Shown: piece by piece, positions 2,501 through 37,190 of the stretch | Position numbering within the stretch: the first letter of the stretch is position 1 | Layout: each line of letters opens with the position of its first letter | Source of the DNA: a bacterium | Lineage (GTDB): Bacteria; Zixibacteria; MSB-5A5; GN15; FEB-12 | Direction of reading: 5' to 3' | DNA: 64,000 nucleotides | Assembly: GCA_043811375.1 (NCBI GenBank) | Contig: JBDRNJ010000072.1 | Coordinates: 137,984-201,983, forward strand | Position numbers and translations under genes: made by a program | Notes under the pieces: generated by a model | What the model saw: only the letters and a program-made list of their open reading frames with translations | Told to the model about the DNA's origin: nothing | Databases searched by the model: none

Positions 2501-2691
2501 CAGGTTATCCTACCTTCCGAACAAACGGGATTTTCAATTGGGGCCAATCTATAACCTGTTATACCATAAATCCATAGCTTTTTTCATTCAAATCCCATGA
2601 ACTTCAGTGGAATCATTCTAAAGATATTACCGTGATCGGACAATCGGCGGAATTTGATTGGTTTTTAATCAAACATCGACTATATTTCAAT

Positions 2692-3417
2692 ATGGTAGTC
2701 CTTGAAGCAGATATGCTCAGCAAGTACTACCGCAGACGTGCCGTTGTCGATGAGGTTTCGATCGTTGTGAAACCGGGAGAAGTGGTAGGTCTGTTGGGGC
2801 CAAACGGAGCCGGCAAGACAACGACATTTTACATGATTATCGGATTTGTCAGACCTGATGGGGGTAAAGTGTATCTCGGCGGCAGGAATATCGGTGGCAA
2901 GCCCATGTATCGGCGAGCCAAACTGGGAATCGGTTATCTGGCTCAGGAGGCTTCGGTCTTTCGAAAAATGACGGTTGAGGATAACATTTTGTCGATTCTC
3001 CAGTTTCGCCGGATGAGCCGCAAGCGGCGCAAAGAGCGGTTGGATGAACTCCTGCAGCAGTTGGATATCGCCCACCTGCGCAAGAGCAAAGCCTACACGT
3101 TATCAGGCGGCGAACGCCGACGGGTTGAGATCACGCGAGCCCTCGTCAACGATCCCAAGTTTATGTTGCTGGACGAGCCGTTTGCCGGTATCGATCCCAT
3201 CGCCGTGGAAGACATACAGAAAATCATCAACCGCCTGGTTCAACATGGACTTGGAATCCTGATTACGGATCACAATGTTCGGGAGACACTTTCGATCTGT
3301 AGCCGGGCTTATATTATGTGCGATGGAAAGATCCTCAAATCGGGGACCTCGGAATTCCTGGCCGGCGATCCGGAAGCGAGAAAAATCTATTTGGGAGAAA
3401 AGTTTCGACTGGACTGA
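2692..3417 (+). CDS. lptB: LPS export ABC transporter ATP-binding protein LptB
   Basis: Walker [10 protein letters not shown], signature [11 protein letters not shown] and Walker [13 protein letters not shown] are present. The N-terminus [23 protein letters not shown] is typical of LptB, and the gene sits directly upstream of rpoN, the classic lptB-rpoN-hpf order. I prefer the ATG at 2692 over the ORF-track start at 2632. Confidence 0.85.
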
Positions 3418-3554
3418 ACAGTCCGTCGGCTTTGTCTAATATATGAACGATATAAGCCGGGAACGTCAATCGAGCAGGTTTGTTTCCGATAACATGATCG
3501 GAGCCGGTATTGACCGGCTGGAACCTTTCGGAGTACAAATCGGCAGGTAAGACT

Positions 3555-4940
3555 ATGAAACTTGGGCTACAATTAAGACTCCAGCAAACCCTGGCACCTC
3601 AGTTGATACAATCGCTGAAGATGCTCCAGATGCCGGTGCTCAAACTGGAGCAGACTATTCGTCAGGAGCTGTCCACCAACCCACTTCTGGAAGAAATAGA
3701 AGAACTGGAACCTGAGCAGGAACTCGACGCTGAGGCTGAAGAGACCGAAGAGAACCCAGACGAGGGTGTTGACTGGGACGAGTACCTCTCTGATGATGAA
3801 GAAGGTTACAAGGTACGTGAACCTCGGGAAGTTCGCGAGGATACTCTGGAGGGATCGGCATCATCGTCACGTAGCCTGCTGACCTACCTGCTGGAGCAGT
3901 TGTCGTTTTTGAAACTGTCCAATGAGGAATACCTGATCGGAGAGTATATCATCGGCAATATCTCGCCCGACGGTTACCTTACTATCGGGGTGCCGGAGAT
4001 GGCCCATGAGCTATCCCTTGACGCCGCCAAGATCGAGTTGGTACTGGCAATGGTCCAGCGTTTCGACCCGACCGGTGTCGGTTCGCGAGACTTGCGGGAG
4101 TCCCTTCTTATTCAGTTGCGAGAAAAAGGACTGGAAGACACCCTACCCTATCGGATCGTTGAGGAACATATCAACAAGTTGGATCGGAAGTCGATCCTGC
4201 AGATATCCAAACTGATGCACACCCCTCTGGAAAAGACAGAAGAGGCGATGGCCGAAATAAAGGAGCTCTCGCCGACACCGGCCTACGGTCGTTTTGCGGA
4301 AGCCGCGATGCCAATTGTCCCGGATCTGACGGTGGAGCGGTTTGGCGATGAGTATGTTGTCTTCCATAACGACCGGCATGTCCCCCGATTACGCATCAAC
4401 TCAGGATACAAAGCCCTGATGAAACGCGGCAGTGAGTCATCCAAGGACACCCGGCAATATATCAAGCAGAAACTGGAACAGGCTCGATGGCTGCTCAATG
4501 CCATCAATCAGCGACGTTCGACGATGATCCGGGTGATGGAAGCCATTATCGAAAAACAGCACGATTTCTTCGACAAAGGCCCCTCGTTTCTCAAACCGTT
4601 GATAATGGAGGAAATTGCCCAAAAGGTCGATATGAATGTGGCCACTATCAGTCGCGTGTCCAACAGCAAATACGTTCAGACTCCCTTTGGCGTTTACGAG
4701 ATCAAATACTTTTTCAACGCCGGTATCACCAAAGCTGATGGTGAGGATATGTCGAAAAGGTCGGTCAAACAACGCATAGAGGAGATTATCAAGGCGGAAC
4801 AACCCAGCCAACCGCTTTCTGACCAGGAAATCTATCGCTTACTGAACGAAGAGGGTATCCGCCTGGCGAGACGAACCGTCACCAAGTACCGTGAGGAGCT
4901 AAAGCTTCCAGCCGCCAGACTTCGCAAACGGGTCAAGTAG
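3555..4940 (+). CDS. rpoN: RNA polymerase sigma-54 factor RpoN
   Basis: The N-terminus MKLGLQLRLQQTLAPQLIQSLKMLQMP matches region I. An acidic region II follows, and the C-terminus carries an RpoN-box-like ARRTVTKYRE. ATG at 3555 is preferred, since the ORF-track start at 3510 would add an atypical 15-aa leader. Confidence 0.92.
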   Translation: MKLGLQLRLQQTLAPQLIQSLKMLQMPVLKLEQTIRQELSTNPLLEEIEELEPEQELDAEAEETEENPDEGVDWDEYLSDDEEGYKVREPREVREDTLEGSASSSRSLLTYLLEQLSFLKLSNEEYLIGEYIIGNISPDGYLTIGVPEMAHELSLDAAKIELVLAMVQRFDPTGVGSRDLRESLLIQLREKGLEDTLPYRIVEEHINKLDRKSILQISKLMHTPLEKTEEAMAEIKELSPTPAYGRFAEAAMPIVPDLTVERFGDEYVVFHNDRHVPRLRINSGYKALMKRGSESSKDTRQYIKQKLEQARWLLNAINQRRSTMIRVMEAIIEKQHDFFDKGPSFLKPLIMEEIAQKVDMNVATISRVSNSKYVQTPFGVYEIKYFFNAGITKADGEDMSKRSVKQRIEEIIKAEQPSQPLSDQEIYRLLNEEGIRLARRTVTKYREELKLPAARLRKRVK

Positions 4941-22636: not shown

Positions 22637-25041
22637 CAACTGATCCTGGATCGAAGCGCCCGGTCAGTTGAAACCCGGTTTCTGACGAAAGGAGCTTGTG
22701 TCATCGCCAGTTTGAGTACTTCACTCGTGGTACGCACAAAGTGCAGTTTCAGTCCTTCCAGCAGAACCGGCTGGAGATCATCGATATCCTTGCGGTTTTT
22801 ATCGGGAAGGATGATCTGTGTTATTCCCAGCCGTTTGGCCGCCAGCAATTTTTCATTGAGGCCACCCACCGCCAGAACATCACCCACCAGAGTTATCTCT
22901 CCCGTCATGGCGATATCGGTTCGCACCGGAATCCCGGTCAGAGTTGAGAGCATGGCGGTAACCAGCGTAATCCCGGCCGACGGCCCGTCTTTGGGAACCG
23001 CACCTTCGGGTATGTGAACATGAATATCAAGCTTATCGTAGAAGCCTTCATCGAGACCGAAACTACGAGCGTGGTTACGGATATATGAGAGCGCCGCCGT
23101 GGCTGATTCCCGCATAATGTCTCCCAGCGAACCGGTCAGCGTCAGCTTGGCTTTGCCCTTCATGGGGATCACTTCCACCGGTAATGCCTCGCCGCCCACT
23201 TCAGTCCAGGCCAGGCCCACCGCGTAGCCGACCGTCGGTTGCTGCTTGATATTGGTGCCGATATACTTGGGAGCACCGAGCAACTTGTGCACTTTGGCCT
23301 TATTGAAGGTAACGCTGCGCGTACGCTTACCCTGGGCCAATTGTACAGCCGTCTTGCGCAGCATACTGCTGATCTGTCGCTCCAGTTCTCGCACTCCCGA
23401 TTCCCTGGTGTAGTGGCGAATTATTTCGTACAGGGCATCCTCCCTGAAAGTCAACCGCATCGATTGCAAACCGGTATCCTTGATCAGTTTGGGGATCAGG
23501 TAATCACGCGCGATAGCGACTTTCTCAAAGTCCAGGTAACCCGGCAGATGAATCATCTCCATGCGATCGCGCAGAGCAGCCGGTACCGGTCCGACCGTGT
23601 TGGCCGTTGTGATAAACAGTATGTTTGACAGATCGTATTCAACTTCGAGATAATTATCCGTGAAGGTGTTGTTCTGCTCCGGGTCAAGCACTTCCAACAG
23701 AGCTGCCGCCGGATCACCGCGAAAGTCCTTGCCGATCTTGTCCACCTCGTCCAGCAGCATCACCGGGTTGGTAGAACCCGCTCTCTTTATCATCTGGAGA
23801 ATTCGGCCCGGCAGAGCCCCGACATAGGTGCGGCGATGTCCGCGAATTTCCGCTTCATCATGGACACCGCCCAGAGACATTCTGACAAACCGGCGATCCA
23901 TAGCACGGGCAATGGACCGGCCGACTGAAGTCTTGCCGACGCCGGGAGGACCAACCAGGCAAAGAATCGGACCTTTCACTTTGCCGGCAAGTTTGATTAC
24001 CGCCAGGTGCTCCATTATCCGGCGTTTGGGTTTCTCCAGGCCATAATGATCACTGTCTAAAATTTGGTTTACTTCCTTGAAATTGACCCGGTCCCGGGTC
24101 GTCTCGCACCAGGGCAAACCCAGCAGCCACTCGAGATAGCTGCGGACAACCCCTGACTCTGCCGAGTAAGGATGCATCCTGGCCAGTTTCTTGATTTCCT
24201 CTTCGGCCCGGGTGCGTACTGCCGGTGGGTAATCCTGGCTGGAGAGTTTAGCCCGCAGATCATCGACCTCGGCGGATGATTCCTCAGACTGGCCCAACTC
24301 GTCCTTGATGGCCTTGAGTTGCTGCTGCAGATAGAACTCGCGCTGACTGCGCGACATTGATTCCCGAACGTTGCTGTCAATCGACTGTTCCAGCTTGAGA
24401 ATTTCAATTTCCTCGCGGAGAATCTCCGTCAGTAACACCAACTGGCTCTTCATCGAAAAAGCTTCCAGCAGTTTCTGTTTGGCTTCGGTGTTATACAGCA
24501 GATGGGCCGCTATGGTATCGATCTGATGGTGGCGCTCGTCAATTGAACCCAGCGATATGGCCACTTCATCGGGAATCCGGCGATTGAGACGAACATACTC
24601 TGAAAAACGTTCATTTACCGAACGGAACAGGGCTTCGGCTTCACGATCACCTTCACCGCTATCAGGAGCGATAAGCCGGACATCGGCAACCCCGCACCGG
24701 CTGGTCTTGCGAAAGGCTTCGACATGGGCGCGGACCAGTCCTTCAACGAGCACTTTCAGAGTCCCGTTGGGCATCTTGGTGACCTGCAGTACGCGGGCCA
24801 TAACGCCCACGTCATAGAGGTCCTCCGGGTCGGGCTGATCGATAGCCGCCCGACGCTGGGCGATCAGCAGAACGCGCTTATCCTTGCCCATGGCCTGGCG
24901 CAGGGCCTTGACGGTAAACTCTCTGCCGATCAGCAGCGGGTACATCATATGGGGGAAGACAACCACATCCCGCAACGGAATTACCGGCAACGAAGTTCTC
25001 ACTTCGGTTGCCTGTTCGTCTTTGGTTTTCACTTTTTTCAT
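22636..25041 (-). CDS. lon: ATP-dependent Lon protease (endopeptidase La)
   Basis: The N-terminal [15 protein letters not shown], the AAA+ Walker [10 protein letters not shown] and the protease Ser motif [15 protein letters not shown] are all present. Start chosen at [10 protein letters not shown] (25041) rather than the upstream GTG at 25122. Confidence 0.93.
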
Positions 25042-25194
25042 AGCACATCCTGAGCGTGAGTGTAACCGGTCCACATCGCGCAAACGGCCCAAGATAGGCA
25101 ATATTCGTTCATCGGCAAACACCTTTTTTGAGAGTTCACGCGGGCTCCGGCGGCTGGTTTCCAGCCGACGACAGCGGACCGAAATGATAACCGA

Positions 25195-26343
25195 TTACTT
25201 CAGTTCAGCGTACACTTTCTCGGCATACCGATCAGTCATACCGGCAATATAGTCGGCGATAACGATTTGTGGCTTTTCGTCGGCGAGCATATTCCGGAAG
25301 CGTGGCGGCATCAGAGAAATATCCTTCCGGATTCTTTCAAATAAGGTCTCTATTATGACTCGCGCTCGTTTCGATGGCTCCTGAAGTCGCAGATGCTCGT
25401 AAAGTCGGTGTCGTAACAGACTCTTGATGGAGTCAACAAACGGTTGTACGGTCGGTGAGTAGCGGCAGATTCTCTCGGCACAGTTTCGTACTGCCGGCAA
25501 ATCCTTTATCTGTAACTGTTCCAATCGATTGCGGGCATGAGTGATTACGTCGGTGGCCATTCTGTCGACCAATCTACGCACTAATTCGTGGTGGCGGTGC
25601 TCATCGGTGAGCCTAAGGAAACCCTGATCGTCTTGAAATCCGAAACCCTGCCAGAAAACGGCTTCCTTCAGATCATCGAGAGCCAGCAGTCCCGAGGTCA
25701 GTCCGTCATCGATATCGTGTGAATTGTAGGCGATTTCATCGGCCACATCGACCAGGGCTGCCTCCAGGGTCGGCTGCCGGAAGATATTGAATTCTTCGAC
25801 ACTAATCCTGACCGAGGTTTCGTGTTTGGCGATCCCTTCACGAACCTCAAACGACAGATTCAAACCGGGATGCTGCGCGTACCTCTGTTCCAGCTTGTCG
25901 ACCACCCGCAAAGACTGGCGATTGTGATTAAACCCGCCCAGATCCTCAAGCAGTTCATCAAGCACTTCTTCCCCGGCATGACCGAACGGCGTGTGTCCCA
26001 GGTCGTGAGCTAGGGCCACCGCTTCGGCCAGGTCCTCGTTGAGGCGAAGGTTCCGCGCAAGCGTACGGCTTATCTGAGCTACCTCGATAGTGTGCGTCAG
26101 ACGAGTGCGATAGTGATCTCTCTCGTGTGGTATGAATACCTGGGTTTTGTACTCCAGGCGTCTGAAAGCGGTGGAGTGGACTATACGATCGCGGTCACGC
26201 TGGAAGGCGGTGCGCAACGGATGATCCGGCTGCGGGTAAACTCTTCCCCGAGATTGAGTCGACAGCGCCGCATACGGCGCCAGGAACTGACGTTCATTTT
26301 GTTCTATCTCATCTCGTGACAGGATTATTCGGCGGATATTCAT
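25195..26343 (-). CDS. dgt: dGTP triphosphohydrolase-like HD-domain protein
   Basis: RTRLTHTIEVAQISRTLAR...AHDLGHTPFGHAGE is the HD motif, and the protein is the typical ~380 aa of the dGTPase-like family. Its start overlaps the upstream gene stop by 4 nt. Confidence 0.85.
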   Translation of the reverse strand: MNIRRIILSRDEIEQNERQFLAPYAALSTQSRGRVYPQPDHPLRTAFQRDRDRIVHSTAFRRLEYKTQVFIPHERDHYRTRLTHTIEVAQISRTLARNLRLNEDLAEAVALAHDLGHTPFGHAGEEVLDELLEDLGGFNHNRQSLRVVDKLEQRYAQHPGLNLSFEVREGIAKHETSVRISVEEFNIFRQPTLEAALVDVADEIAYNSHDIDDGLTSGLLALDDLKEAVFWQGFGFQDDQGFLRLTDEHRHHELVRRLVDRMATDVITHARNRLEQLQIKDLPAVRNCAERICRYSPTVQPFVDSIKSLLRHRLYEHLRLQEPSKRARVIIETLFERIRKDISLMPPRFRNMLADEKPQIVIADYIAGMTDRYAEKVYAELK

Positions 26344-27185
26344 GGCTTGTCGGTCCTCTCCGATGATGGTCCAAACCGGTAGGACAGACCGGCGCTGTGT
26401 GACAGTCCGAGAGCGGGATGGTAACTGGTCGCGAAGGTCAGACCTCCGTGGTCAACAGTCACTTCGAAACCGCCTCCATATTGCAGAGGCGCCGTGGACA
26501 CCCCCCAGAAAACCGCACCCTGACGGGTGAGAGTCAATTTTTGTCCCAGGCCAAACTGGGGCCGTTCGGTTTCTTCCACAGTGAAGCGGCCCAGTATAGA
26601 AAAAGACCCCTGTCCCAACGTTTCCAGATAGAACGAGCATCTTTTGGTGGTCACCGGACCCTGAGGGCTCAGACGAGGGGAAGTGAGATTATCGGACGAG
26701 ACAGCAACCTTGATCCGGGAAGTGCGATACCCGGCACAAACACCGACGGTAGCGGCGCTGAGGGGATCATAACCACCGCCAAATGATATCAACCGGGCCG
26801 ACAGGGCGGCACCAACGGTCAGGGAATCTATTCTAAAGGCAGTACCCAATCGAATTGTCTTTTCGGCATACAGGTCACTGAACCCCAGTTGGGTCAACCC
26901 CAGAGTCAGCGTGGTCTGTCCCCAGCGATGGGCAACGGCGAACACCACCTGGTCGAGTTCCTTCAGGTTGAACCGGCGCAGTGCGCCCAACTCAATTTTC
27001 GTCTCACCGGTTTCAATGCCACCGACCGGCACCGCTACCAGCGCTGTCGCCGACGATTTTGACAACACCACACCACCGCCTACGCCCGGTCCGTGACCGG
27101 TCTCAAACTCGAAAGCGGACAAGTCCCCACCACCAGTGATGGCCAGCAGGATGATACCGGCGATAATTGTACGATGCTTCGTCAC
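26340..27185 (-). CDS. putative small outer-membrane beta-barrel protein
   Basis: 281 aa with a signal-like N-terminus (MTKHRTIIAGIILLAITGGG). The rest is Gly/Ser/Thr-rich with alternating-hydrophobic beta-strand patterns up to ...SAGLSYRF. It is coupled by 4-nt overlaps to both neighbours. Confidence 0.45.
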   Translation of the reverse strand: MTKHRTIIAGIILLAITGGGDLSAFEFETGHGPGVGGGVVLSKSSATALVAVPVGGIETGETKIELGALRRFNLKELDQVVFAVAHRWGQTTLTLGLTQLGFSDLYAEKTIRLGTAFRIDSLTVGAALSARLISFGGGYDPLSAATVGVCAGYRTSRIKVAVSSDNLTSPRLSPQGPVTTKRCSFYLETLGQGSFSILGRFTVEETERPQFGLGQKLTLTRQGAVFWGVSTAPLQYGGGFEVTVDHGGLTFATSYHPALGLSHSAGLSYRFGPSSERTDKP

Positions 27186-28843
27186 CGCGCTATCACCAGC
27201 GGTTTCTTGACAGCCCCCCAGCCGCTGGCCTCGACGTACAAGATGTAGATACCGACCGGCAGGCGACGGTTTCCGTCGGAGCGGCCATTCCAGGTATAGC
27301 TGTCTTTTAACAGTCTTTCCTCTTCGACCAGGGTGCGCACGACTCTCCCCTGCCGATCATAGATGCGTATCGATAAGTCCGTTTCGGTCGGAGCCGAGGT
27401 GACCACAATCGTAACCTCATCCTGCACTCCGTCGCCGTCCGGGGAAAAGACCGCCGGCTCTACCGTAACTGCCAGATCGGAGACCTCCGGTTGCAGCAGG
27501 ACCGCGTTGAGCCTACCCGGTGAGCCGCCGACCTGTTCTGATCTGCCCCACTCGCTCTCCCGCTCACCGGCGTTGCTGCGGCTCCAGGTGTAGTTGCTGC
27601 CGTAGGTGTCGGCATAAGCAAAACTGTCGGCCGTAAATCCAAAGCTGTCGACCAATCTCACCAGGTCGTCATTATCGTTAAAAGGCGGCCACTGCAACGG
27701 CTGCAGGCAGCGTCCGTCGAATTGGGAGTAGAAATCATGAAAAGCCACACTATCCTGCACCAGGATGAAGTATTCACCCGGTTCTATCAAGACCGCCATA
27801 TCCGCAACAACCCGCAACACCCGGGAATCACCGAGCAGGTATCCGGCCAGGTTAACGATGTCCGTAGAACTATTCTTAATCTCAACCCACTCCGTCCGTA
27901 GCGGCAATTCATGGTCGGCCAGGATTTCCGACAGGATGATGGATGGAAAGTCTACACCCGGTGCGACAAAATCTGAATGGTTGTTGCGCTCGCGATCATC
28001 GTTCGATAAAGAAGCAGACAGCCTGGCATAGACACCGTCAAGGTAATACTGTCGGGCAGTCGTGAAGGTATCGCCCGGCAGTAGTTCACCGGTGTCAATG
28101 CTATCAATAATCTGATACAGTGTAGCCGAATCGCTGACCGTGTCGGTGCTGATAATGAGTTGTGAGTTTGGTGTTGTCTCCAGACCGCGATTTGTCACGG
28201 TGAAGGTTATGTCAGCAGCTCCGTTTTGCGGCCTGACGGATATGTCCTCCAGCGCCAGATCAAACGGCACCGGTGTCCACGAATTGACCATACCGGGCGT
28301 GGAACCATCGGAGTCTATCGATTGTTCAACCTCCGCCGATGCCGGTGACAACCGTTCCCACGAGACTCCATCGGCGCTTTCAATGGTCCATGACAATTGC
28401 GAGATGCTCATTCCGCTGCCGTCTAACAGTTTGACAGTTCCATTTGTGTTGGTCAGTATCAGACCGGTTTCGAAAGGAGTCGGTAGCAGGCTCTCCTGCG
28501 GCGTGTCCCCCCAGACGCCGGAGCTGTCGCCCCAGTAGTCTTCGAAACCGCGTGATGAACCGTCAGTGTAGAGACGGCGGCAAATGATCAGGTAGCCACC
28601 AGCCGAAATATCGAGACTGTCGGACAATGCAACCGGGGAACCGTTGACGGTAAGCTGATAGCCATCAAGCGCAACGGCGGCGGTCGAGTCATTGTAGAGT
28701 TCAATCCACTCCAGAGTGACGTAACCCAGGGGTTCATTGGCCAGAACTTCGTTAATGATGACTCCCGCTCTGACATCACCCCACAAGACCAACCCCCAGA
28801 CAGACAAACCGACAATTGCCGGCATGAAGCGAGCCACTCTCAT
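27182..28843 (-). CDS. secreted protein with two lamin-tail domains (LTD) and a C-terminal FlgD-Ig / T9SS-CTD-like domain
   Basis: A signal peptide is present. The LTD signatures are GVIINEVLANEP..VTLEWIELYNDS..VALDGYQL and SIILSEILADHE..RTEWVEIKNSS..VNLAGYLL. The C-terminus FSPDGDGVQDEVTI...IRIYDRQGRVVRTL...WNGRSDGNRRLPVGIYILYVEA is typical of FlgD_ig/Por-tail-like domains. Confidence 0.75.
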   Translation of the reverse strand: MRVARFMPAIVGLSVWGLVLWGDVRAGVIINEVLANEPLGYVTLEWIELYNDSTAAVALDGYQLTVNGSPVALSDSLDISAGGYLIICRRLYTDGSSRGFEDYWGDSSGVWGDTPQESLLPTPFETGLILTNTNGTVKLLDGSGMSISQLSWTIESADGVSWERLSPASAEVEQSIDSDGSTPGMVNSWTPVPFDLALEDISVRPQNGAADITFTVTNRGLETTPNSQLIISTDTVSDSATLYQIIDSIDTGELLPGDTFTTARQYYLDGVYARLSASLSNDDRERNNHSDFVAPGVDFPSIILSEILADHELPLRTEWVEIKNSSTDIVNLAGYLLGDSRVLRVVADMAVLIEPGEYFILVQDSVAFHDFYSQFDGRCLQPLQWPPFNDNDDLVRLVDSFGFTADSFAYADTYGSNYTWSRSNAGERESEWGRSEQVGGSPGRLNAVLLQPEVSDLAVTVEPAVFSPDGDGVQDEVTIVVTSAPTETDLSIRIYDRQGRVVRTLVEEERLLKDSYTWNGRSDGNRRLPVGIYILYVEASGWGAVKKPLVIAR

Positions 28844-30462
28844 ACCGTCACCTTTAGTTGGAACCGGATGAGAGTCCTCGGGGCACTGCTTGAACGCTGA
28901 TAACTATGGCTCAACTTGGTCACTGCCGTCACACCCTGAAACAGTTGCTGCTCACCGGAGAGATACCAGTACCAGTAGTTTATTGATGCCTCCTTCAGAT
29001 CGAATCGGGCCAGATTGGACCAGGCTTCAAATGATCCCAGGCGGCGGGATCGGTAGCGGACATTAACAAAAACTGAAAGATGGTCCGCTTTGTCACTGCC
29101 CGTGTTGTAAGCAATATAGCTTCTGGCGGTCAGATTGCCAGCGTTGATTCGGCTCTCCATTCGCAGCCGCCGGTCTGTTTGCACCTGTCCCCGTTTCCTG
29201 GTCCGATTGAGAAAGTCAAAGCGCAGTTCTCTGCCGGGGGAAGTTTGCCACACCAGTGCCGCTAAATACCGGACATTCAGCGAATCGCTGTTGAGGCCGG
29301 CATACAGGACGGAGTTGACCACTTCCAGATCGTCAGCAGCCCGCACAATGCTTCTGATCATCGCACCTGCCTGTCCGGAACGCCTGGTCGAATAAGTAAA
29401 GTCGACCCTGTCCAGCGATGTTGTGTGAAGGACACGACCGGACTTGCCTCCGGCGGCAAGATCAAGGTAAGTGTCGGCGTAGACCCAGCCGGCATATCTG
29501 ACCTCGGCCGCCTGGAGACGATGCCGACCTTCGACCACCAGCCCGGCCCAGGCCGGCCTTGCCCCGGTTTGCCCGCATGATTCCAGACGCAGGTACCCGC
29601 TCCGGTAGCGGTAGTCGGACGAGAGGGCATACTTGACGTCATCAAGAACAACTCCGGTGGTACGGTTCTTGAGCCGGGTGGCACCCAGTATGACACCGGG
29701 TCGGAATGATCCGGACGCGGCAGATATCATACCCCCGTACGAGACGATGCTGTGGTCGTTATCGCGGTTGACGGAGGCGAGTGTCTGCATGGATGTGCCG
29801 CGCCAGCGGGTTTTAGCATAGAAACCGTTAAAACCGCCGTAGTCGGGAAACAGGACCGACTCTATCTCCAGCCGATCAGAAGACTCCAGCAACTTACCCC
29901 GATATCCCAGCACTGTTCCGGCGCCCAGACGACGCGAGAAGCTTCCCAGGGTCAGTTCCCGCAGTACCGTCTGCCGGTTGCGGTAGGTGAGTCCTCGGCT
30001 GACGATTCGTTCGGTCCCGGAAAATCCCCGGTGGATCATCAATGCCGCGTGGAGATTTCCGCCCAGGTAGAAACGGCCGGAAGTGCGGTATTCACCACGC
30101 CCGGATTCACTAATTTCCTGTACGTAGCGATAGCGGAGAACCGTGTGGGGTCGGGTCGTCGGGAGTGTGTCGCAAGAAAATACCGCCCTCTGTTCTTTTT
30201 CCAGCGACGTCCTCAAAGCCAGTTCAGACCTGAGAAAAGCCGACAGGTTGGGTATTTCATCAAACAGATCGCCAGCGGCGGAATCGAGACCGTGGACAAT
30301 GATCTCGCGTAGCGTCAGGTACTGCTGATAATCGATTTCCCCCAACTGCCAGGCTTGATACAACTCATCTTCGGATGAAAAGACTTCTGTCGCCGGTTCC
30401 AGTCCGTCCGCCACCGACACCATAAGCAGCAAGGTCGGAATGACCATCACCAGTGATCGCAC
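28840..30462 (-). CDS. hypothetical secreted/outer-membrane protein (helical N-terminal segment followed by a long beta-rich region)
   Basis: 540 aa. The GTG start lies 2 nt after the activator stop. The signal is MRSLVMVIPTLLLMVSVADG. About 90 helical aa (..EIDYQQYLTLREIIVHGL..EIPNLS.., weakly HhH-like) are followed by repetitive R/Y/G/S-rich strands consistent with a large beta-barrel. Confidence 0.45.
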   Translation of the reverse strand: MRSLVMVIPTLLLMVSVADGLEPATEVFSSEDELYQAWQLGEIDYQQYLTLREIIVHGLDSAAGDLFDEIPNLSAFLRSELALRTSLEKEQRAVFSCDTLPTTRPHTVLRYRYVQEISESGRGEYRTSGRFYLGGNLHAALMIHRGFSGTERIVSRGLTYRNRQTVLRELTLGSFSRRLGAGTVLGYRGKLLESSDRLEIESVLFPDYGGFNGFYAKTRWRGTSMQTLASVNRDNDHSIVSYGGMISAASGSFRPGVILGATRLKNRTTGVVLDDVKYALSSDYRYRSGYLRLESCGQTGARPAWAGLVVEGRHRLQAAEVRYAGWVYADTYLDLAAGGKSGRVLHTTSLDRVDFTYSTRRSGQAGAMIRSIVRAADDLEVVNSVLYAGLNSDSLNVRYLAALVWQTSPGRELRFDFLNRTRKRGQVQTDRRLRMESRINAGNLTARSYIAYNTGSDKADHLSVFVNVRYRSRRLGSFEAWSNLARFDLKEASINYWYWYLSGEQQLFQGVTAVTKLSHSYQRSSSAPRTLIRFQLKVTV

Positions 30463-30464
30463 GG

Positions 30465-31922
30465 TCAGCTCAGATGATACTTCTTGAGTTTACGGTAGAG
30501 TGTCCGTTCACCTATACCCAGTCTGCGGGCGGCTTCCTTGCGATTACCGCCGGTGTCGGACAGGGCCTTGACGATGAGTGCTCTTTCCATCTGCTCCACG
30601 GTTGTCCCCGGTGGTACCTGGGCTGACTCTGCCGTATCCTGCTCAGCCGGAATTTCGGTCGGGAGGTGAGAGGTAATAATATCTCGCAGCAGGCGAATCT
30701 CGTTGCCCATTGAGAGAATCGCCCGATAGATGAGTTCCTGACCGGCTTCCTCAACCGTGCGGCCGGTGGTAACGGGCAAGTGCACGGCACCGGCGCGCTG
30801 CTCGTCAAGGAAAGTCTCGATATCTTCGGCCTCGACCAGTCCCTCCGGTTTGAGAGCCGCCATACGGTCGGCAAAGTTCTTCAACTGGCGGATATTGCCG
30901 GGCCAGTCATATTTCACCAGGAGTTCCAGGGCTGAGTCAGAGTAGTCCAGGTCTTGACGCCCCGACCAGAAATGCTGCAACAACGGCTGTATGTCGCATT
31001 TTCTCTCCCATAGCGGCGGCAGAACAACCTTAACGACACTGATCCTGAAATAGAGATCCTCACGGAACAAGCGATCGGCGATAGCCTCATTGAGATCACG
31101 GTTGGTGGCCGCGATAACACGTACATCCGTTCTTGACGGCGTTGAGGAACCGACCGGGTAATAGGTACCGTCCTCCAGAACCCGCAGCAGTTTGGTTTGC
31201 ATTGGCGGACTGGTTTCACCTATTTCGTCTAAGAAGATCGTGCCGCCGTCAGCTTTGTGAAAGAGACCCCGGCGTCGCCCCACCGACCCGGTAAAAGCAC
31301 CCTTTTCATGACCGAACAGTTCCGACTCCAGGACTCCCTCGGCCAGGGCGCCACAATTGACAGACACAAAAGGACGGTCGCTGCGAGCCGAGTTTTCATG
31401 CAGAGCGCGAGCCACCAGTTCTTTGCCGGAACCGGACGGACCCACTATCAGCACCGACACCTCGGTGGCGGCAAGGCGTTTGATTGTCTGGCCCACGGCT
31501 TTCATTCGTGGAGACCGGCCGATCATCTTCAACTGTGTCAGCAGGTCTTTGCCATCGAGAATGCGGCCAACGGCTTTTGCGATACCCTGCTGGTCGGCAT
31601 CACGACTGATAACACCATCGATAAAATCGTGGGGCGGTTCCGAATGAATGTCACCGGCGGCCACCATCCAGATTTCGGTCAGTCCATAGTAACGGCGAAT
31701 CTTGGCCGCTACGGCCCGCTTGAGATCTGAACGACTTTCATCGACCAGGATCAGGTCGATCCGATTCTCTCTGACCAGATGGTAAAGTTGCGATAACTCG
31801 GTGACGACTTGTCCGACAGCCGTCCAGTCGATGAGGTCATCGGTCACCTCCTGAGCGTTCAGCAACACGGCGACTCTTTTTTTTGAACTCCGGCGATTGG
31901 TAGTCTTTTCCAGTTTGTTCAC
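30465..31922 (-). CDS. sigma-54-dependent transcriptional activator (NtrC family) with atypical receiver-like N-terminus
   Basis: The AAA+ domain has Walker A GPSGSGKELVARALH, the GAFTGS loop (EKGAFTGSV) and an ESELFGHE-type motif. A C-terminal Fis-type HTH (NRKEAARRLGIGERTLYRKLKKY) is present. The N-terminal ~120 aa is receiver-like (..DLILVDES..) but lacks the usual acidic DD pair after strand 1. Confidence 0.88.
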   Translation of the reverse strand: MNKLEKTTNRRSSKKRVAVLLNAQEVTDDLIDWTAVGQVVTELSQLYHLVRENRIDLILVDESRSDLKRAVAAKIRRYYGLTEIWMVAAGDIHSEPPHDFIDGVISRDADQQGIAKAVGRILDGKDLLTQLKMIGRSPRMKAVGQTIKRLAATEVSVLIVGPSGSGKELVARALHENSARSDRPFVSVNCGALAEGVLESELFGHEKGAFTGSVGRRRGLFHKADGGTIFLDEIGETSPPMQTKLLRVLEDGTYYPVGSSTPSRTDVRVIAATNRDLNEAIADRLFREDLYFRISVVKVVLPPLWERKCDIQPLLQHFWSGRQDLDYSDSALELLVKYDWPGNIRQLKNFADRMAALKPEGLVEAEDIETFLDEQRAGAVHLPVTTGRTVEEAGQELIYRAILSMGNEIRLLRDIITSHLPTEIPAEQDTAESAQVPPGTTVEQMERALIVKALSDTGGNRKEAARRLGIGERTLYRKLKKYHLS

Positions 31923-31998
31923 CTGCTACTTCCCGGTTGCCAAAACGTTTAGAGCTTGACTTAAAAGGTCCATAAGTGCCGTTCCGAACGCCGGAGTG

Positions 31999-32328
31999 GT
32001 CATGCTGAGCGGAGTCGAAGCATGGCAGCTATCGGCTGATTTATGAGTCTCCCAACTTCAGTCTTACTTCCATTACGCTAAAGCAAAATGTGGCGACACC
32101 ACTCACCCTTCGACTCCGCTCAGGGTGACGACATTCGCTGCCTTTCGTTTGTTCGGTTGGGTCTTGGCTCGCCTCCGGGCGAGGTGTAACCCGACCGGAA
32201 ATCCACTTAGTTGCAGCACAAGTCCTTGGGAGATATTCGTCAGGTCACACCCCCGACTTCATCGGTGGCAAGACCTGACGAAACATTATTATGACACAGC
32301 TTGTCCGCTCAGGGTGACGACATTCGCT
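31999..32328. repeat. intergenic repeat family R3 (…ctgagcggagtcgaag… / tccgctcagggtgacgacattcgct)
   Basis: A 25-nt perfect direct repeat tccgctcagggtgacgacattcgct occurs at 32115-32139 and 32304-32328. gtcatgctgagcggagtcgaagcatg (31999-32024) is an imperfect inverted copy of 32106-32129 (cccttcgactccgctcagggtgac). Confidence 0.75.
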
Positions 32329-32360
32329 ACCTTGTGAAACATACTTATGGGACAACCTCT

Positions 32361-34544
32361 TCACTTCCGACCTGTCTTTTTACGACGAGTCCCTGCCGCC
32401 CGTTTACGCCCGTCTTTGCCGGATCGCCGACCTTTGGGAGGCACCACAAAAAGATCAATTCCGCTGTTTATTTTGTCAACCTTGAGCACACCAACCCTGA
32501 TTTTGTCACCCAGTCGGAAACATCGCCGGCTGGCACGACCCACCATCCGATGCTGCTTCTCGTCGAATCGGTAGTAATCGTCATCGATGGTTGACATACG
32601 CACGAGACCTTCGGCACCCATATTGTCGAGCCTGACGAAGAAACCGTATGAAGCGACGCCGGAGATCACACCATCGAACTCATCACCCAGGTGGCGAGCC
32701 ATGTAGGTTGCCTGCTTGACTTTGATGGCCTGACGTTCGGCTGCTTCGGAGGTTCGTTCGGTCTCGGAACAATGCCGACCGGTATGGTCAATCACGGAGA
32801 CTACTCTCCGGGCGAACGCCGGCGGGTACTTCCCGTCCCGCAACCGTCTCAGCAGGCGATGAACCAGCAGGTCCGGATAGCGCCGAATCGGCGAGGTAAA
32901 GTGCGTATAGTGTGTAAAAGCCAATCCGAAATGACCGATATTTCGACGCTGGTAGACCGCTTTCTGCATCGACCGCAGCATCAGCTCATTGATAAAATCT
33001 GATTCCGGCCGGTCTTTGACCTGGTCCAGAAAACGTGCGAAGGCCAGCGGTTTCATATCAGGTGAAACGACAAAGCGATGTCCCAGCCGGGTCATCATCT
33101 CCGAAAAAGCTTCCAGTTTCTCCATGTCCGGTCGGTCATGGACACGATAGAGAAAAGGCTGAGCCTTGCGGAAGACTTCCAGCGCCACCGCTCGATTGGC
33201 CGCCAGCATGAACTCTTCGACCAGCCGATGCGACTCCAGTCGTACGCGACTGCCCAGTTCGAGTACTTCTCCCCGTCGGTTGAGAATGATTTTTGCCTCC
33301 GGCAGGTCAAAGTCCAGCGAGCCGTGTGCAAATCGACGCTTGCTCAGAAGCTTCGCCAGCCGACGCGCTACGGTCAGGCTTTCGGCAACTCGGGCTACCC
33401 GGGAGTTGGCCGTACTGTCGTCAAAGAAAGTCTGTACGTCTTCGTAAGACAACCTGGCTCGGGATTTGATCACGGTGTCATCCAGACGCCATGACAACAT
33501 CTTTCCCCTACGGTCAAAATCGATGAATATGGAAAAGGCTAAGCGTTTCCGGTTCGGTTTGAGCGAACAGACGTCGTTGGAAAGAACCTCGGGCAGCATT
33601 GGAATCACCATCCCCGGCAGATAAACCGAGTTACCCCGCTCAAACGCCTCTTTGTCCAGTTCCGAGCCGGCCGCAACGAAGTACGAGACATCAGCGATAT
33701 GCACTCCCAGACGGAACCCGCCGGTCACTTCCTCAACCGAGACGGCATCATCATGGTCTTTGGCATCGACCGGATCGATAGTGTAGACGCACTCCCGGGT
33801 AAGGTCCAGCCGTCGCTCCATTTCCGACGATGTCATGGTTGCATGGGCAGCTTCCGCCTCGCGCACCACCTGTGCCGGGAACTTCTCCGACAAGCCGAAA
33901 CTCCTTACAACCGACAACATGTCAACACCCGGATCGCCCGGTAAACCCAATCGTTCTTTGACCGAAGCGACCGGATTCTCATACGGGTTGTCCCAGGCAC
34001 TCAACACCGCCACCACTTTCTCGCCGTCGGCTGCGCCGGCCGTTTCGCCCCGTGGGATGTACAAGTCGCGCTGGAATCGCGGGTTATCGGGCCGGACAAA
34101 GCATAGTTGACGACTCTGATGAAAAACACCTATTATGTTCCTGTCAGCCCTTTCCACCACCCTGATCACTGCCGCCGTCTGACGACCACTCCGCTGCCCG
34201 GTGAGGCGCACCATAACCCGATCACCATCCATAGCGGTGGCCATATCAGAAGGAGGAATCATGACATCCTCGACATCCTCCTCTGCCTCGCGCGCCACGA
34301 ATCCAGTGCCGCCGCGCGTGACGGAGATTTCCCCGACCAGAATATCCATGCGAGCGGCCAGACCGATACGGTTCCGCTTGAGTTTGACCAGTTCACCTGT
34401 CTCCAGCAACTGTCGGATCACCTGCCGAAATCGACGATAATCTGATTGCGGAATCTCAAGCGCCGTCGCCAATTCCTTGATCTTCATGGGCCGCTGCGAT
34501 TGCGACCTGATGAAAGCAACTATCTGTTCCGGGTCAAAGGTCAT
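32361..34544 (-). CDS. rnr: ribonuclease R
   Basis: 727 aa. An N-terminal HTH/cold-shock-like region is followed by the RNB catalytic domain (..YTIDPVDAKDHDDAVSVE..) and an S1 domain (..DGVISGVASYGFFVRL..). A Lys/Arg-rich C-terminal tail is typical of RNase R. Confidence 0.92.
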   Translation of the reverse strand: MTFDPEQIVAFIRSQSQRPMKIKELATALEIPQSDYRRFRQVIRQLLETGELVKLKRNRIGLAARMDILVGEISVTRGGTGFVAREAEEDVEDVMIPPSDMATAMDGDRVMVRLTGQRSGRQTAAVIRVVERADRNIIGVFHQSRQLCFVRPDNPRFQRDLYIPRGETAGAADGEKVVAVLSAWDNPYENPVASVKERLGLPGDPGVDMLSVVRSFGLSEKFPAQVVREAEAAHATMTSSEMERRLDLTRECVYTIDPVDAKDHDDAVSVEEVTGGFRLGVHIADVSYFVAAGSELDKEAFERGNSVYLPGMVIPMLPEVLSNDVCSLKPNRKRLAFSIFIDFDRRGKMLSWRLDDTVIKSRARLSYEDVQTFFDDSTANSRVARVAESLTVARRLAKLLSKRRFAHGSLDFDLPEAKIILNRRGEVLELGSRVRLESHRLVEEFMLAANRAVALEVFRKAQPFLYRVHDRPDMEKLEAFSEMMTRLGHRFVVSPDMKPLAFARFLDQVKDRPESDFINELMLRSMQKAVYQRRNIGHFGLAFTHYTHFTSPIRRYPDLLVHRLLRRLRDGKYPPAFARRVVSVIDHTGRHCSETERTSEAAERQAIKVKQATYMARHLGDEFDGVISGVASYGFFVRLDNMGAEGLVRMSTIDDDYYRFDEKQHRMVGRASRRCFRLGDKIRVGVLKVDKINSGIDLFVVPPKGRRSGKDGRKRAAGTRRKKTGRK

Positions 34545-34585
34545 TACCCGAATATATTAAGACGAAATTAAACCCAGTCAAGCAA

Positions 34586-34607
34586 GAATGGCAGAATTAT
34601 GCCATTC
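34586..34607. promoter_or_regulatory. perfect 8-6-8 palindrome (gaatggca-gaatta-tgccattc), candidate operator
   Basis: Seen directly in the divergent intergenic region between rnr and the first dockerin-tagged beta-helix gene, about 100 nt upstream of the putative -35 box. Confidence 0.3.
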
Positions 34608-34708
34608 TGACAGATTATATTTCATCACACTCCAGCTACAAACTGCGGACCGGGTGGATTTAACTCTCCTAAGATACTGTAAGACAACGAACAACCGAGA
34701 ATTATCGC

Positions 34709-34736
34709 TTGACACGGCTTTGCAGAATGATATATT
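34709..34736 (+). promoter_or_regulatory. sigma-70-like promoter candidate for the 34791 operon
   Basis: TTGACA (34709-34714), a 16-nt spacer and TATATT (34731-34736), lying 55 nt upstream of the ATG. Confidence 0.45.
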
Positions 34737-34790
34737 GTTGATGGATAAGGAAGTTCAGATCTATTTACACTGTCTGAAGGTTAACTACAA

Positions 34791-37190
34791 ATGAATCGTT
34801 TGATGTTTATTGTGGTGCTGGCTGGCTGTATGACCGGTCTGGGGATTACGGTTTCTGCGAGTGTGATTCATGTTCCCGGTGATTCGGCCACTATTCAGGC
34901 GGGAATCAACGGTGCGTCGACGGGCGACACCGTGTTAGTTGCCGACGGCACCTATACCGGAGTTGGGAACCGTGACCTTGATTTCATGGGCAAGAACATT
35001 GTCCTGAAGTCTCAAAACGGCCCGGAAGTTACGATTATCGACTGTCAGGGTGATTCGCTTGACGAGCACTTTGGGATAATTCTTGAGAATGGCGAAGACA
35101 CTACCGCCACTATAGAAGGTTTTACTATTACCAACAGCTATGTCATAGAGTGGAAGTCAGGCGCCATCTGGATGAAGGATGCCTCGGCGACTGTCAGGAA
35201 CTGTGTTGTTACCGGCAACCATGGTAAGGGTATTTATCACGATTTCGCTTTGAATCGCACGTTTCTGCTGTATGACTCCAAGATCAACAACAACAGCGGC
35301 ACGGGATTCTGGAGCGAGGCCTGGATCACAATTGTATCCGGGTGCGAGATTTCGTTCAACGGCCAATACGGCATGAACTGGTCTTCGTGGAACAAGCTGG
35401 AATTATCCGACTGCCTGTTTGAAGGCAACGCTGATGACGGCCTGTTTATCTGGACCTCCGGCCCTGATTTTCACGTTTACAACTGCACGTTTGTCGGCAA
35501 CGGCAACGGGATGTCTTACGAATGGAACTTTCCCAAAAGTGGTGACGGAACCGCCGGGACATCGAGGGTGACATGCGTCATTGAGAACTGTCTCTTTGCT
35601 TATAATGACAATGCGGGACTGTCATCATACCATTTCCCCTTCAGCATCAATGTTCACTGTAATAACGCCTACGGCAACGGCACCGCTGACTACGACCTCC
35701 ACCTGGACGAGCCCACCGACACCGCCAACAACATATCTCTGCACCCGCTTTTTTGCGATACTGCTTCCGGCGATTACACTATCGACGCCATTTCGCCCTG
35801 TGCCGCAACCAGCCCGCTCAATCCCTGCGCTACCCTGATCGGCCGCTACGACGTCGGTTGCGCGCTGGTGCCGGATACTGATGGCGACGGCATCGGTGAC
35901 GACGGGGATAACTGTCCGCTCGTTTACAACCCCGGCCAGGAAGATACCGACGGCGACGGTATCGGTGACAGCTGCGACGTCGAGATAGTCTGGTATGTCA
36001 AGGCCGATGGCAGCGGCGATGCACCCACCATCCAGGCCGCGGTTGATTCGGCATCAGACGGTGATACCGTGCTGGTTGCGGCCGGCACCTACACCGGCGT
36101 CGGTAACCGCGCCATTGATCTGAGCGGCAAAGTGCTGGTTGTGATTTCAGAAAGTGGCGCCGGTTCAACGACTGTTGACTGTGAAGCGGTACCCGGCGCT
36201 GCCTTCCTGGTCGTCACCGGCGAGGACTCGCTGACTGTAATCGACGGCTTCACTATAACCGGGGCTCTTGGTGGCTACGACACCGGCGCCGTGGTCTGCC
36301 GGTCGGCATCGCCCACTATCCGCAACTGCATCATTACTCAGAACGAATGCTATGGCTTCATGGGCGATCACTCCTCGGCGATAATCGAAAACTGTGTCCT
36401 CTCACATAATAACTCTGATGGCGTGTATGCGTTTGCGGCCTACCCACCTATCCGGATAACCGGCTGCGAAGTATCGAATAATCTGTACAACGGCGTCTTC
36501 AGCGCCTGGCACGGAATGCTGGAGATGTCCGACTGCCTGGTCACAAACAACGGTGAGCACGGGCTGCTGATTCTCACTTTTGCAGAAGAGTATCATGTCA
36601 CCAACTGTACTTTTGTCGGCAACAAGTACGGAATGACGTTCTGGTTCAACTATCCCAAGGGCAGCTCGGTCCAACCGACCTTCGACAGCGCCGCGGTCAT
36701 GAACTGCATTTTTGCCTTTAACGAAGACAAAGGTCTGACACTTGACCAGACGTTTGAGATCTCGGCCATTGCGCGCTGTAATAATTCCTATGGCAACCCC
36801 GGTGGTGATTACGAGTTCGGTATTCTAGATACCACGATATCGTTCGCAAACTTGTCACTGCACCCGTTGTTCTGTGACACCGCCATCGGCGACTTCACTA
36901 TAGCCGAGGAATCTCCCTGCGCTCCGGCCAACAACTCCTGCGGTGTGCTAATGGGCGTTTTCGGTACTGCCTGCAAATGTTGTCAGGAGCCGGGTGATGT
37001 CGACCACAGCGGCGGCGTCGATGCCGGCGACCTGACCTACCTGGTAGCGTATCTTTTCCAGGGCGGCCCACCACCACCATGTCCGGAGGAGGGTGATGTC
37101 GACGGCAGCGGCACCATGGATGTTGGCGACCTGACGTTCCTGGTGGCTTACCTGTTCCAGGGCGGTGGTCCGCCCTTGCCGTGCCCGTGA
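34791..37190 (+). CDS. secreted protein: two parallel beta-helix modules, thrombospondin-type-3-like Ca-binding repeats, C-terminal dockerin-like module
   Basis: Signal MNRLMFIVVLAGCMTGLGITVSA. There are two homologous modules, each starting ..GDTVLVA.GTYTGVGNR.. followed by repeated ..NC.....N..G.. turns (VRNCVVTGNHGKGIY, IRNCIITQNECYGF). The TSP3-like part reads DTDGDGIGDDGDNCPLVYNPGQEDTDGDGIGDSCD. The C-terminus is CCQEPGDVDHSGGVDAGDLTYLVAYLFQGGPPPPCPEEGDVDGSGTMDVGDLTFLVAYLFQGGGPPLPCP. Confidence 0.8.
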   Translation: MNRLMFIVVLAGCMTGLGITVSASVIHVPGDSATIQAGINGASTGDTVLVADGTYTGVGNRDLDFMGKNIVLKSQNGPEVTIIDCQGDSLDEHFGIILENGEDTTATIEGFTITNSYVIEWKSGAIWMKDASATVRNCVVTGNHGKGIYHDFALNRTFLLYDSKINNNSGTGFWSEAWITIVSGCEISFNGQYGMNWSSWNKLELSDCLFEGNADDGLFIWTSGPDFHVYNCTFVGNGNGMSYEWNFPKSGDGTAGTSRVTCVIENCLFAYNDNAGLSSYHFPFSINVHCNNAYGNGTADYDLHLDEPTDTANNISLHPLFCDTASGDYTIDAISPCAATSPLNPCATLIGRYDVGCALVPDTDGDGIGDDGDNCPLVYNPGQEDTDGDGIGDSCDVEIVWYVKADGSGDAPTIQAAVDSASDGDTVLVAAGTYTGVGNRAIDLSGKVLVVISESGAGSTTVDCEAVPGAAFLVVTGEDSLTVIDGFTITGALGGYDTGAVVCRSASPTIRNCIITQNECYGFMGDHSSAIIENCVLSHNNSDGVYAFAAYPPIRITGCEVSNNLYNGVFSAWHGMLEMSDCLVTNNGEHGLLILTFAEEYHVTNCTFVGNKYGMTFWFNYPKGSSVQPTFDSAAVMNCIFAFNEDKGLTLDQTFEISAIARCNNSYGNPGGDYEFGILDTTISFANLSLHPLFCDTAIGDFTIAEESPCAPANNSCGVLMGVFGTACKCCQEPGDVDHSGGVDAGDLTYLVAYLFQGGPPPPCPEEGDVDGSGTMDVGDLTFLVAYLFQGGGPPLPCP
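36972..37187 (+). other. dockerin-like C-terminal module (paired EF-hand-like loops, Cys-flanked)
   Basis: Two copies of D-x-D-x-S/D-G-x-[VIM]-D-x-x-D-L-x-[YF]-L-V-x-Y-L-F, each followed by P-rich ..PCP, and preceded by CC. Confidence 0.7.

Follow-up and report, generated by a model that had tools for sequence, protein, structure and literature searches.

A conserved Zixibacteria operon whose envelope trio may display a lamin-tail protein through a type 9 secretion-style barrel

Within a 64-kb stretch of one metagenome-assembled genome (MAG) of the Zixibacteria, the window of this analysis, six minus-strand genes follow one another: an RNase R gene (rnr), the gene of a sigma-54 activator, genes for a 540-aa predicted barrel protein (P540), for a secreted protein with lamin-tail domains (LTDs) and for a 281-aa predicted barrel protein (P281), and a dGTPase gene (dgt). 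Our preferred explanation, in which as a whole we place moderate confidence, is that these genes form a conserved Zixibacteria transcription unit and that, by analogy with pairs known from the Bacteroidota, the block most likely displays a surface protein by means of a carrier barrel in type 9 secretion system (T9SS) style. The core of the unit would be a translationally coupled outer-membrane trio of P540, the LTD protein and P281, a display module carried in a housekeeping operon.

That the block is a unit is indicated by its gene order. We compared the window with 60 related loci, comprising 838 kb of sequence, that were recovered by scanning a single genome for each GTDB species and belong to the Zixibacteria; orthologues of the window proteins were located in them by tblastn, and counts given for relatives refer to these loci. 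The order RNase R, activator, P540, LTD protein, P281, dGTPase is kept in about 45 of the 60 genomes and in almost every locus of sufficient length, and with strict open reading frame (ORF) criteria all six genes are colinear in 33 loci and the P540-LTD-P281 trio in 43. This synteny persists though P540 identity drops to 26%. Where the full order is not seen, the contig usually ends or the scaffold has a gap; the apparent breaks in loci L008, L013 and L016 are explained by runs of N, and frameshifts are present in L052. The sole intact exception is locus L004, in which P540 follows the activator and plsX-fabHDG takes the place of the LTD protein, P281 and dgt (L004:3584-12456). The block is present as one copy, phylum-wide, in a housekeeping setting, and in the window Lon, EngB and PurA come after dgt.

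The five minus-strand ORFs from the activator to dgt (30465-31922, 28840-30462, 27182-28843, 26340-27185, 25195-26343) follow one another with a single 2-nt gap and then three overlaps of 4 nt, exactly as given in a preliminary description of this DNA, and the NCBI product names agree for the five proteins, P540 and P281 both being entered as 'hypothetical protein'. In relatives the median gap between rnr and the activator is 9 nt, and the following gaps have medians of 2, -4, -4 and 4 nt. Because median gaps near zero recur across the 60 loci, we take translational coupling to be a conserved property and not a matter of chance. The tightly coupled operon of envelope proteins proposed in the preliminary description is upheld by this conservation of order and spacing, and a chance juxtaposition, the outcome it had named as fatal to its proposal, is not what the relatives show; its extracellular nucleic-acid interpretation and its hint of a helix-hairpin-helix (HhH) segment gained no support, and its placing of the activator at the head of the operon needs correction.

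The LTD protein (553 aa, 27182..28843) has a signal peptide, a first LTD at residues 26-152 (nt 28388-28768), a middle domain of low conservation, a second LTD at about residues 301-450 (nt 27494-27943), and a putative CHU_C/FlgD-Ig sorting domain at its C-terminus (CTD; residues 463-553, nt 27185-27457). The two LTD stretches are matched at 1.8e-22, and the C-terminus matches CHU_C (PF13585) at 35.1 bits against a cut-off of 27 over residues 463-539, with lower scores for FlgD_ig (25.3 bits) and Por_Secre_tail (17.7 bits), in agreement with the earlier view of a double-LTD protein with a FlgD-Ig/T9SS-like tail. Among 44 orthologues, LTD is found in all 44, FlgD_ig in 40 (best 3.3e-9) and CHU_C in 35 (best 8.1e-12), with CHU_C returning the better E-values; the middle region gives a weak CARDB match in one orthologue. 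The conservation profile shows the CTD to be the best conserved region of the protein, with a derived consensus of FSPDGDG...IYD..GR.V...WDG...G.Y..Y...VIAR, and in some lineages, which retain the CTD and the neighboring barrel gene, the protein is shorter and has only one LTD. The CTD appears to be a specific module, since its profile matches only one other protein in the 838 kb of related loci.

Directly downstream, the P281 gene (26340..27185) overlaps the stop codon of the LTD gene by 4 nt, and the median gap over 45 loci is -4 nt. P281 has a signal peptide and an N-terminal G-x-G-x-G-G segment, and its AlphaFold2 (AF2) model contains a barrel of 14 strands at residues 62-271 (nt 26373-27002; pLDDT 82.6). 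In a Foldseek comparison with the PDB the highest TM-score, 0.67 with a root-mean-square deviation of about 5 Å, is to PorV in the T9SS translocon (8gl6_F, 6h3i_F), and by E-value FadL and TodX come first; on this model P281 is predicted to be a 14-strand FadL/PorV-like barrel with an N-terminal segment inside the barrel. The G-x-G-M-G-G form of that segment in P281 aligns, with an hhalign E of 4e-4, with its counterpart in a protein of the PorV/PorQ family encoded by a Zixibacteria MAG. The window protein has no Pfam or NCBIfam match, and PorP_SprF (PF11751) is the only Pfam family that recurs among P281 orthologues (8/61, best 3.4e-6); TIGR03519, which has a cut-off of 90.55, is matched by two family members at 24 and 16.7 bits. 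A P281 profile run against a set of 5.8 billion proteins recovered only orthologues and no annotated PorP, and nothing among PDB sequences. We call P281 PorP/SprF-PorV-like and not a family member because the window protein reaches no family cut-off, and sequence and model together would place it, remotely, in the PorP/SprF-PorV barrel family. The preliminary description had named an assignment of the 281-aa protein to PorP/PorV as an outcome that would speak against its own interpretation, and it is this outcome, in a remote form, that we find.

P540 (540 aa, 28840..30462) is the least familiar of the three envelope proteins. It carries a signal peptide, a helical, predicted periplasmic N-domain at residues 24-95 (nt 30178-30393) and a barrel at residues 106-539; the AF2 model (pLDDT 87.9, pTM 0.84) has about 24-26 barrel strands, and four helices between residues 31 and 93. 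Foldseek returns only generic large barrels, with FimD and PapC as the best matches (E 1.7e-10, TM about 0.5, 8-9% identity) and TonB-dependent receptors and porins next. There is no Pfam or NCBIfam match for the window protein or for 55 family members, no PDB sequence relative by profile, and no relationship to the P281 family by hhalign. The large beta-rich protein of the preliminary description is thus modelled with confidence as a barrel, and no known family could be assigned to it. A profile search of 1.84 billion proteins found 340 clusters at 50% identity, and those listed, 150 in number, are either fragments or have lengths of about 510-580 aa, with no distant relative of another kind among them; as judged by such searches and by the source names of homologues, which point to the Zixibacteria, P540 is an uncurated family found only in Zixibacteria-type genomes. 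Conservation peaks in the N-domain and in a Gly-rich loop at residues 176-210 or 176-213 (nt 29833-29937 for the former), which holds most of the invariant residues, and because these are the most conserved parts of P540, its conserved partners may lie on the periplasmic or lumen side. The weak HhH segment suggested earlier for the N-terminus was not recovered by either profile test: 23 N-domain sequences gave no HhH Pfam match at E<=10, and the N-domain profile found no HhH protein in the PDB.

Type B cargo of the T9SS offers the closest parallel to the last two of these genes. In the Bacteroidota, genes for type B CTD proteins are usually linked to genes for PorP/SprF-like proteins, and the carrier both binds its cargo, as SprF does SprB and PorP does PG1035, and is needed for its secretion (PMC9143113; PMC12618676); five conserved CTD motifs, A-E, are also described as required for secretion of type B cargo (PMC12618676). 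The linkage to a PorP/SprF-like carrier gene is found here as well, with a likeness of P281 that is remote. We infer, by analogy with SprB-SprF and PG1035-PorP, that P281 is the cognate carrier of the LTD protein. The LTD protein would be exported by Sec, with its two Ig-like lamin-tail domains and a CHU_C/FlgD-Ig sorting domain of the type B kind, after which P281 would bind the CTD, bring the cargo through the outer membrane or out of it, and keep it attached to the cell surface; P540 may be a partner that the pair cannot do without, serving as a platform or being itself the conduit. In close homologues of SprF a C-tail Cys-X-Cys links the carrier to the GldK track (PMC12635249), and since P281 is without such a tail, static display seems likelier than track-driven movement. 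Cargo-shuttle pairs of another type in the T9SS style probably also exist in the phylum, because in one Zixibacteria MAG (CP070756, L008:9986-11299) a protein with a type-A-like CTD (PNPF...IRIYNLAGELV...GIYIY...) is immediately followed by a PorV/PorQ-family gene, whose product scores 186.6 bits with NF033709 against a cut-off of 90. Our literature search found no paper linking Zixibacteria with the T9SS, or lamin-tail domains with PorP.

Several results weigh against the carrier model. The window P281 itself has no match to PorP_SprF (E<=10) or to TIGR03519, only eight of 61 orthologues match PorP_SprF, each of them under the curated cut-offs, Foldseek E-values are as good for FadL and OmpG as for PorV, and the C-tail of P281, LSYRFGPSSERTDKP, contains no Cys, and hence no SprF-type Cys-X-Cys. 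The cargo CTD may be a T9SS type-B-like sorting domain, yet the type-B label is not secure, because the type B CTD model TIGR04131 scores 24.8 bits, under its cut-off of 35, and FlgD_ig matches more orthologues than does CHU_C. No T9SS core genes (SprA, PorK/L/M/N) were seen within the 64-kb window, which is only part of the genome; locus L004 keeps P540 beside the activator with neither cargo nor carrier; and the model leaves the phylum-wide flanking of the trio by rnr and dgt without explanation. In addition, the operon that we propose below as the target of the activator is not in the window, so that this prediction concerns relatives.

Two other readings of the trio can be set beside the carrier model. 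P540, P281 and the LTD protein could form a self-contained three-part export device, in which P540, as an usher-like pore or a small SprA analogue, is the conduit, P281 the shuttle and the LTD protein the only substrate, such that a canonical T9SS is not needed. The size of the P540 barrel, its periplasmic N-domain and conserved internal loop, its best matches to FimD and PapC, and the translational coupling that ties it, in almost every genome, to the genes of cargo and carrier would suit a conduit, and such a device would fit with the lack of T9SS core genes in the window and with the dockerin tails, instead of T9SS CTDs, on its other secreted proteins. The fold match of P540 is generic, however, extending to TonB-dependent receptors and porins, and neither a usher Pfam match, a chaperone gene nor an energy source was found; moreover, the PorV/PorQ gene beside a type-A-like CTD in another Zixibacteria MAG indicates that a conventional T9SS may be present, and in L004 P540 occurs without cargo and carrier. 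We consider this reading rather unlikely, and we are equally doubtful of its evolutionary corollary, that the three proteins are a minimal export and display device confined to Zixibacteria-type genomes and a precursor or stripped-down relative of the type 9 translocon. Alternatively, the trio could be a structural part of the envelope, such as an abundant surface-layer or outer-membrane-tethering complex, that rides in a housekeeping operon and resembles PorP and CTD proteins through common ancestry. Its phylum-wide single copy among housekeeping genes (rnr and dgt, with Lon, EngB and PurA in the window) and a sigma-70 promoter would be expected of such a component, the family assignments of P281 are weak, and the FlgD_ig and CHU_C assignments of the CTD are indistinguishable. 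Type B cargo is nonetheless known for just this arrangement, in which the gene of a PorP-like barrel comes directly after a CTD gene, and the CTD is both the most conserved part of the cargo and, with a single further match in 838 kb, a specific module; a purely structural role therefore strikes us as quite unlikely.

The preliminary description had instead proposed, very tentatively, an extracellular system for nucleic acids or nucleotides, in which the LTD protein and the P540 N-terminus would bind DNA and the dGTPase and RNase R would process nucleotides. The dGTPase itself is well identified: the last gene of the block (25195..26343, 382 aa) encodes an HD enzyme of the dGTP triphosphohydrolase family with an equivalog-level match to NF002326 (455.7 bits, cut-off 390) and matches to HD (1.1e-14) and HD_assoc (1.4e-19), and it follows P281 in relatives with a median gap of 4 nt, so that the earlier recognition of a dGTPase-like gene colinear with the operon was correct. 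The phylum-wide flanking of the trio by RNase R and dGTPase is in keeping with a nucleic-acid role, as is the association of lamin-tail domains with extracellular nucleases in some bacteria. However, profile scans of P540, the LTD protein and P281, orthologues included, revealed no nuclease, HhH, OB-fold or other DNA-binding family, the P540 N-domain profile has no HhH family or structure behind it, and P281 inclines to the PorP/PorV barrels. Both RNase R and dGTPase do housekeeping work in the cytoplasm, and inspection of their sequences gave no evident signal peptide. An extracellular nucleic-acid system is thus very improbable, and display of the LTD protein through P281 remains our preferred explanation.

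The conserved unit begins with rnr and not, as the preliminary description had it, with the activator, because a conserved predicted sigma-70 promoter and an operator sit upstream of rnr. The rnr ORF (32361..34544, minus strand, 727 aa) is the first gene of the block, and RNase R orthologues, 54-75% identical, lie directly upstream of the activator in relatives, where the two genes overlap by 4 nt in 13 loci. The promoter and operator region occupies 34554..34612 on the minus strand, as seen from the sequence and a promoter scan: the operator CTGTCAgaaTGGCAtaattcTGCCA (34612-34589), of the form TGCCA-N3-TGGCA-N6-TGCCA, abuts a -35 box TTGACT (34581-34576), which is followed by a -10 box TAATAT (34559-34554) and the rnr ATG at 34544. 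The window has in common with about 40 of 43 loci an architecture upstream of rnr in which cTGCCA-www-TGGCr-N5/6-TGCCA is followed by TTGAC as -35 box and TAnnnT as -10 box, spaced 17 nt apart, and the TGCCA-N3-TGGCr palindrome is almost confined to this site in the 838 kb of loci. We conclude that the rnr promoter is, from its predicted elements, a conserved promoter of the sigma-70 type. The transcript looks to be leaderless or nearly so, because no more than about 7-10 nt separate the -10 box from the ATG. A candidate for the factor that binds the predicted operator is the activator encoded in the operon itself.

In the window a 438-nt, lineage-specific spacer (31923..32360, minus strand) separates rnr from the activator. 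Such a long spacer is unusual, being found in the window and its closest relative, in comparison with a gap of about 9 nt in relatives. It holds two exact copies of GTCGTCACCCTGAGCGGA (32115-32132 and 32304-32321) and a degenerate inverted copy (31996-32013), that is, three matches against 0.04 expected by chance; no copy of the repeat was found elsewhere in the window or in the 60 related loci. An Rfam search of positions 24900-35000 gave nothing above threshold and one chance miRNA match.

The activator (30465..31922, minus strand, 485 aa) is a sigma-54 enhancer-binding protein of the NtrC family. Its AAA+ domain with a GAFTGS loop (residues 133-299, nt 31026-31526) matches Sigma54_activat (PF00158) at 7.4e-67 and aligns end to end with the cores of ZraR, NifA, NtrC1 and FleQ, and its Fis-type helix-turn-helix (HTH; residues 441-482, nt 30477-30602) matches HTH_8 at 6.5e-17; the intact AAA+/GAFTGS/HTH core noticed earlier is borne out by these profiles, and orthologues in the related loci are 54-73% identical. 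The sigma factor on which it would act is encoded in the same genome, since rpoN (3510..4940, plus strand; Sigma54_AID, Sigma54_CBD and Sigma54_DBD domains) lies in the window, preceded by an lptB-like ABC ATPase gene (2632-3417); lptB followed by rpoN is a classic arrangement.

The N-terminus of the activator is a pseudo-receiver (residues 14-125, nt 31548-31883). It has no Response_reg match at E<=0.1, and a profile of the N-terminal 130 residues weakly matches receiver-type proteins (2qsj and a de novo receiver), with DLILVD aligned on the beta-3 Asp region and DG-I on beta-5. In 52 orthologues an acidic pair is missing from the end of beta-1, which reads D/N/S/G and then P/R/S/K; only 56% keep a D where the phospho-Asp would stand, and neither the Thr/Ser nor the Lys position shows conservation, so that the features of a phosphorylatable receiver are lacking. 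The preliminary description had noted the missing acidic pair and the lack of an adjoining kinase gene; both observations hold, the former more strongly than stated, as careful alignment reveals no canonical pocket. Because the receiver appears to have lost its phosphorylation site, the activator, presumably a working sigma-54 ATPase, would be controlled by something other than a histidine kinase.

The activator does not seem to drive the trio from a local sigma-54 promoter and probably acts elsewhere. A search of the window for TGGCAC-N5-TTGCW with <=2 mismatches gave 31 matches against 30.5 expected, none sensibly placed, and there is no sigma-54 promoter at a conserved position inside the block in the 60 loci; the sigma-54 promoter search by which the preliminary description had hoped to define the regulon of the activator produced none within the block, either in the window or in relatives. 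A near-consensus sigma-54 promoter is instead present, in 20 relatives, on the strand that carries dgt and 100-3500 nt downstream of that gene (L020:13392-17159; also L012, L017-L021, L024, L027, L033, L035, L038, L039, L041-L044, L047, L052 and L054). There, GGCA(C/T)-N5-TTGC precedes all 20 copies of p126, a 126-aa gene with a weakly RNase H-like product, with the -12 GC placed 12-16 nt before the ATG (exactly 13 nt in 17/20), an arrangement that suggests leaderless sigma-54 transcripts. The genes that follow are holA, an extracytoplasmic function (ECF) sigma factor gene, an anti-sigma factor gene and a PspC-domain gene, and a GTGAA-N6-TTGCA element is conserved about 90 nt upstream of the promoter; these genes and elements are absent from the window. 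Judging only by neighborhood, we infer that the sigma-54 promoter of p126-holA-ECF sigma-anti-sigma-pspC is the likely target of the activator in those relatives.

Two further features of the window lie outside the block. Three secreted proteins end in type I dockerins (34791-37190, 37233-39740 and 56459-57811), two of them right-handed beta-helix proteins and the other a papain-family protease, which may point to surface anchoring of a cohesin-dockerin-like kind in this organism. On the plus strand, two paralogous DUF6754 proteins (58039-59322 and 61634-62896, E about 1e-119 each) enclose three unannotated ORFs (59341-61634) of the same cluster.

To our knowledge, type B cargo-carrier pairs have been studied only in the Bacteroidota. 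If our explanation is correct, the same cargo-carrier genetic logic has been fixed across an uncultured and little-known phylum, together with an extra large barrel of a family that databases do not describe. Should P540 prove to be a conduit or a required platform, the trio would be a small three-gene system for learning how PorP-like carriers receive and display their cargo, and would bear on how the T9SS arose. The block is also a handle on sigma-54 regulation in Zixibacteria, offering a putatively kinase-independent activator, a conserved predicted operator at its own operon and, in relatives, a conserved and apparently leaderless sigma-54 promoter at an operon resembling those for envelope stress.

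Comparison with known systems places each component. The activator is like FleQ and VpsR, sigma-54 activators with degenerate receivers, in its NtrC-family AAA+ core, its Fis-type HTH, its degenerate receiver and the lack of a kinase gene nearby. FleQ is among its best PDB matches through the AAA+ domain only, the N-domain having no detectable sequence relationship, and in this case the activator gene is inside an apparent sigma-70 operon and not beside a sigma-54 target. P540 resembles the chaperone-usher pores FimD and PapC in the size of its barrel (about 24 strands), in having an N-terminal domain on the periplasmic side and in carrying an insertion near the start of the barrel, but its insertion is of about 35 aa and is not a plug domain, it has no C-terminal domains, none of 55 family members has an usher Pfam match, and its neighbors are the LTD cargo and P281 instead of chaperone or pilin genes. 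The T9SS type B pairs SprB-SprF and Fjoh_3952-Fjoh_3951 of F. johnsoniae and PG1035-PorP-PorE of P. gingivalis differ from the Zixibacteria locus, which lies outside the Bacteroidota, has a remote carrier under the family cut-offs without a C-tail Cys-X-Cys or a PorE-like partner, places a 540-aa barrel of a new family before the pair, and is embedded among rnr, a sigma-54 activator gene and dgt. What the locus has in common with these pairs is a surface protein, predicted here to be Sec-exported, with a CHU_C-type Ig-like end, whose gene is followed directly, and with tight coupling, by the gene of a 14-strand PorP/PorV-like barrel.

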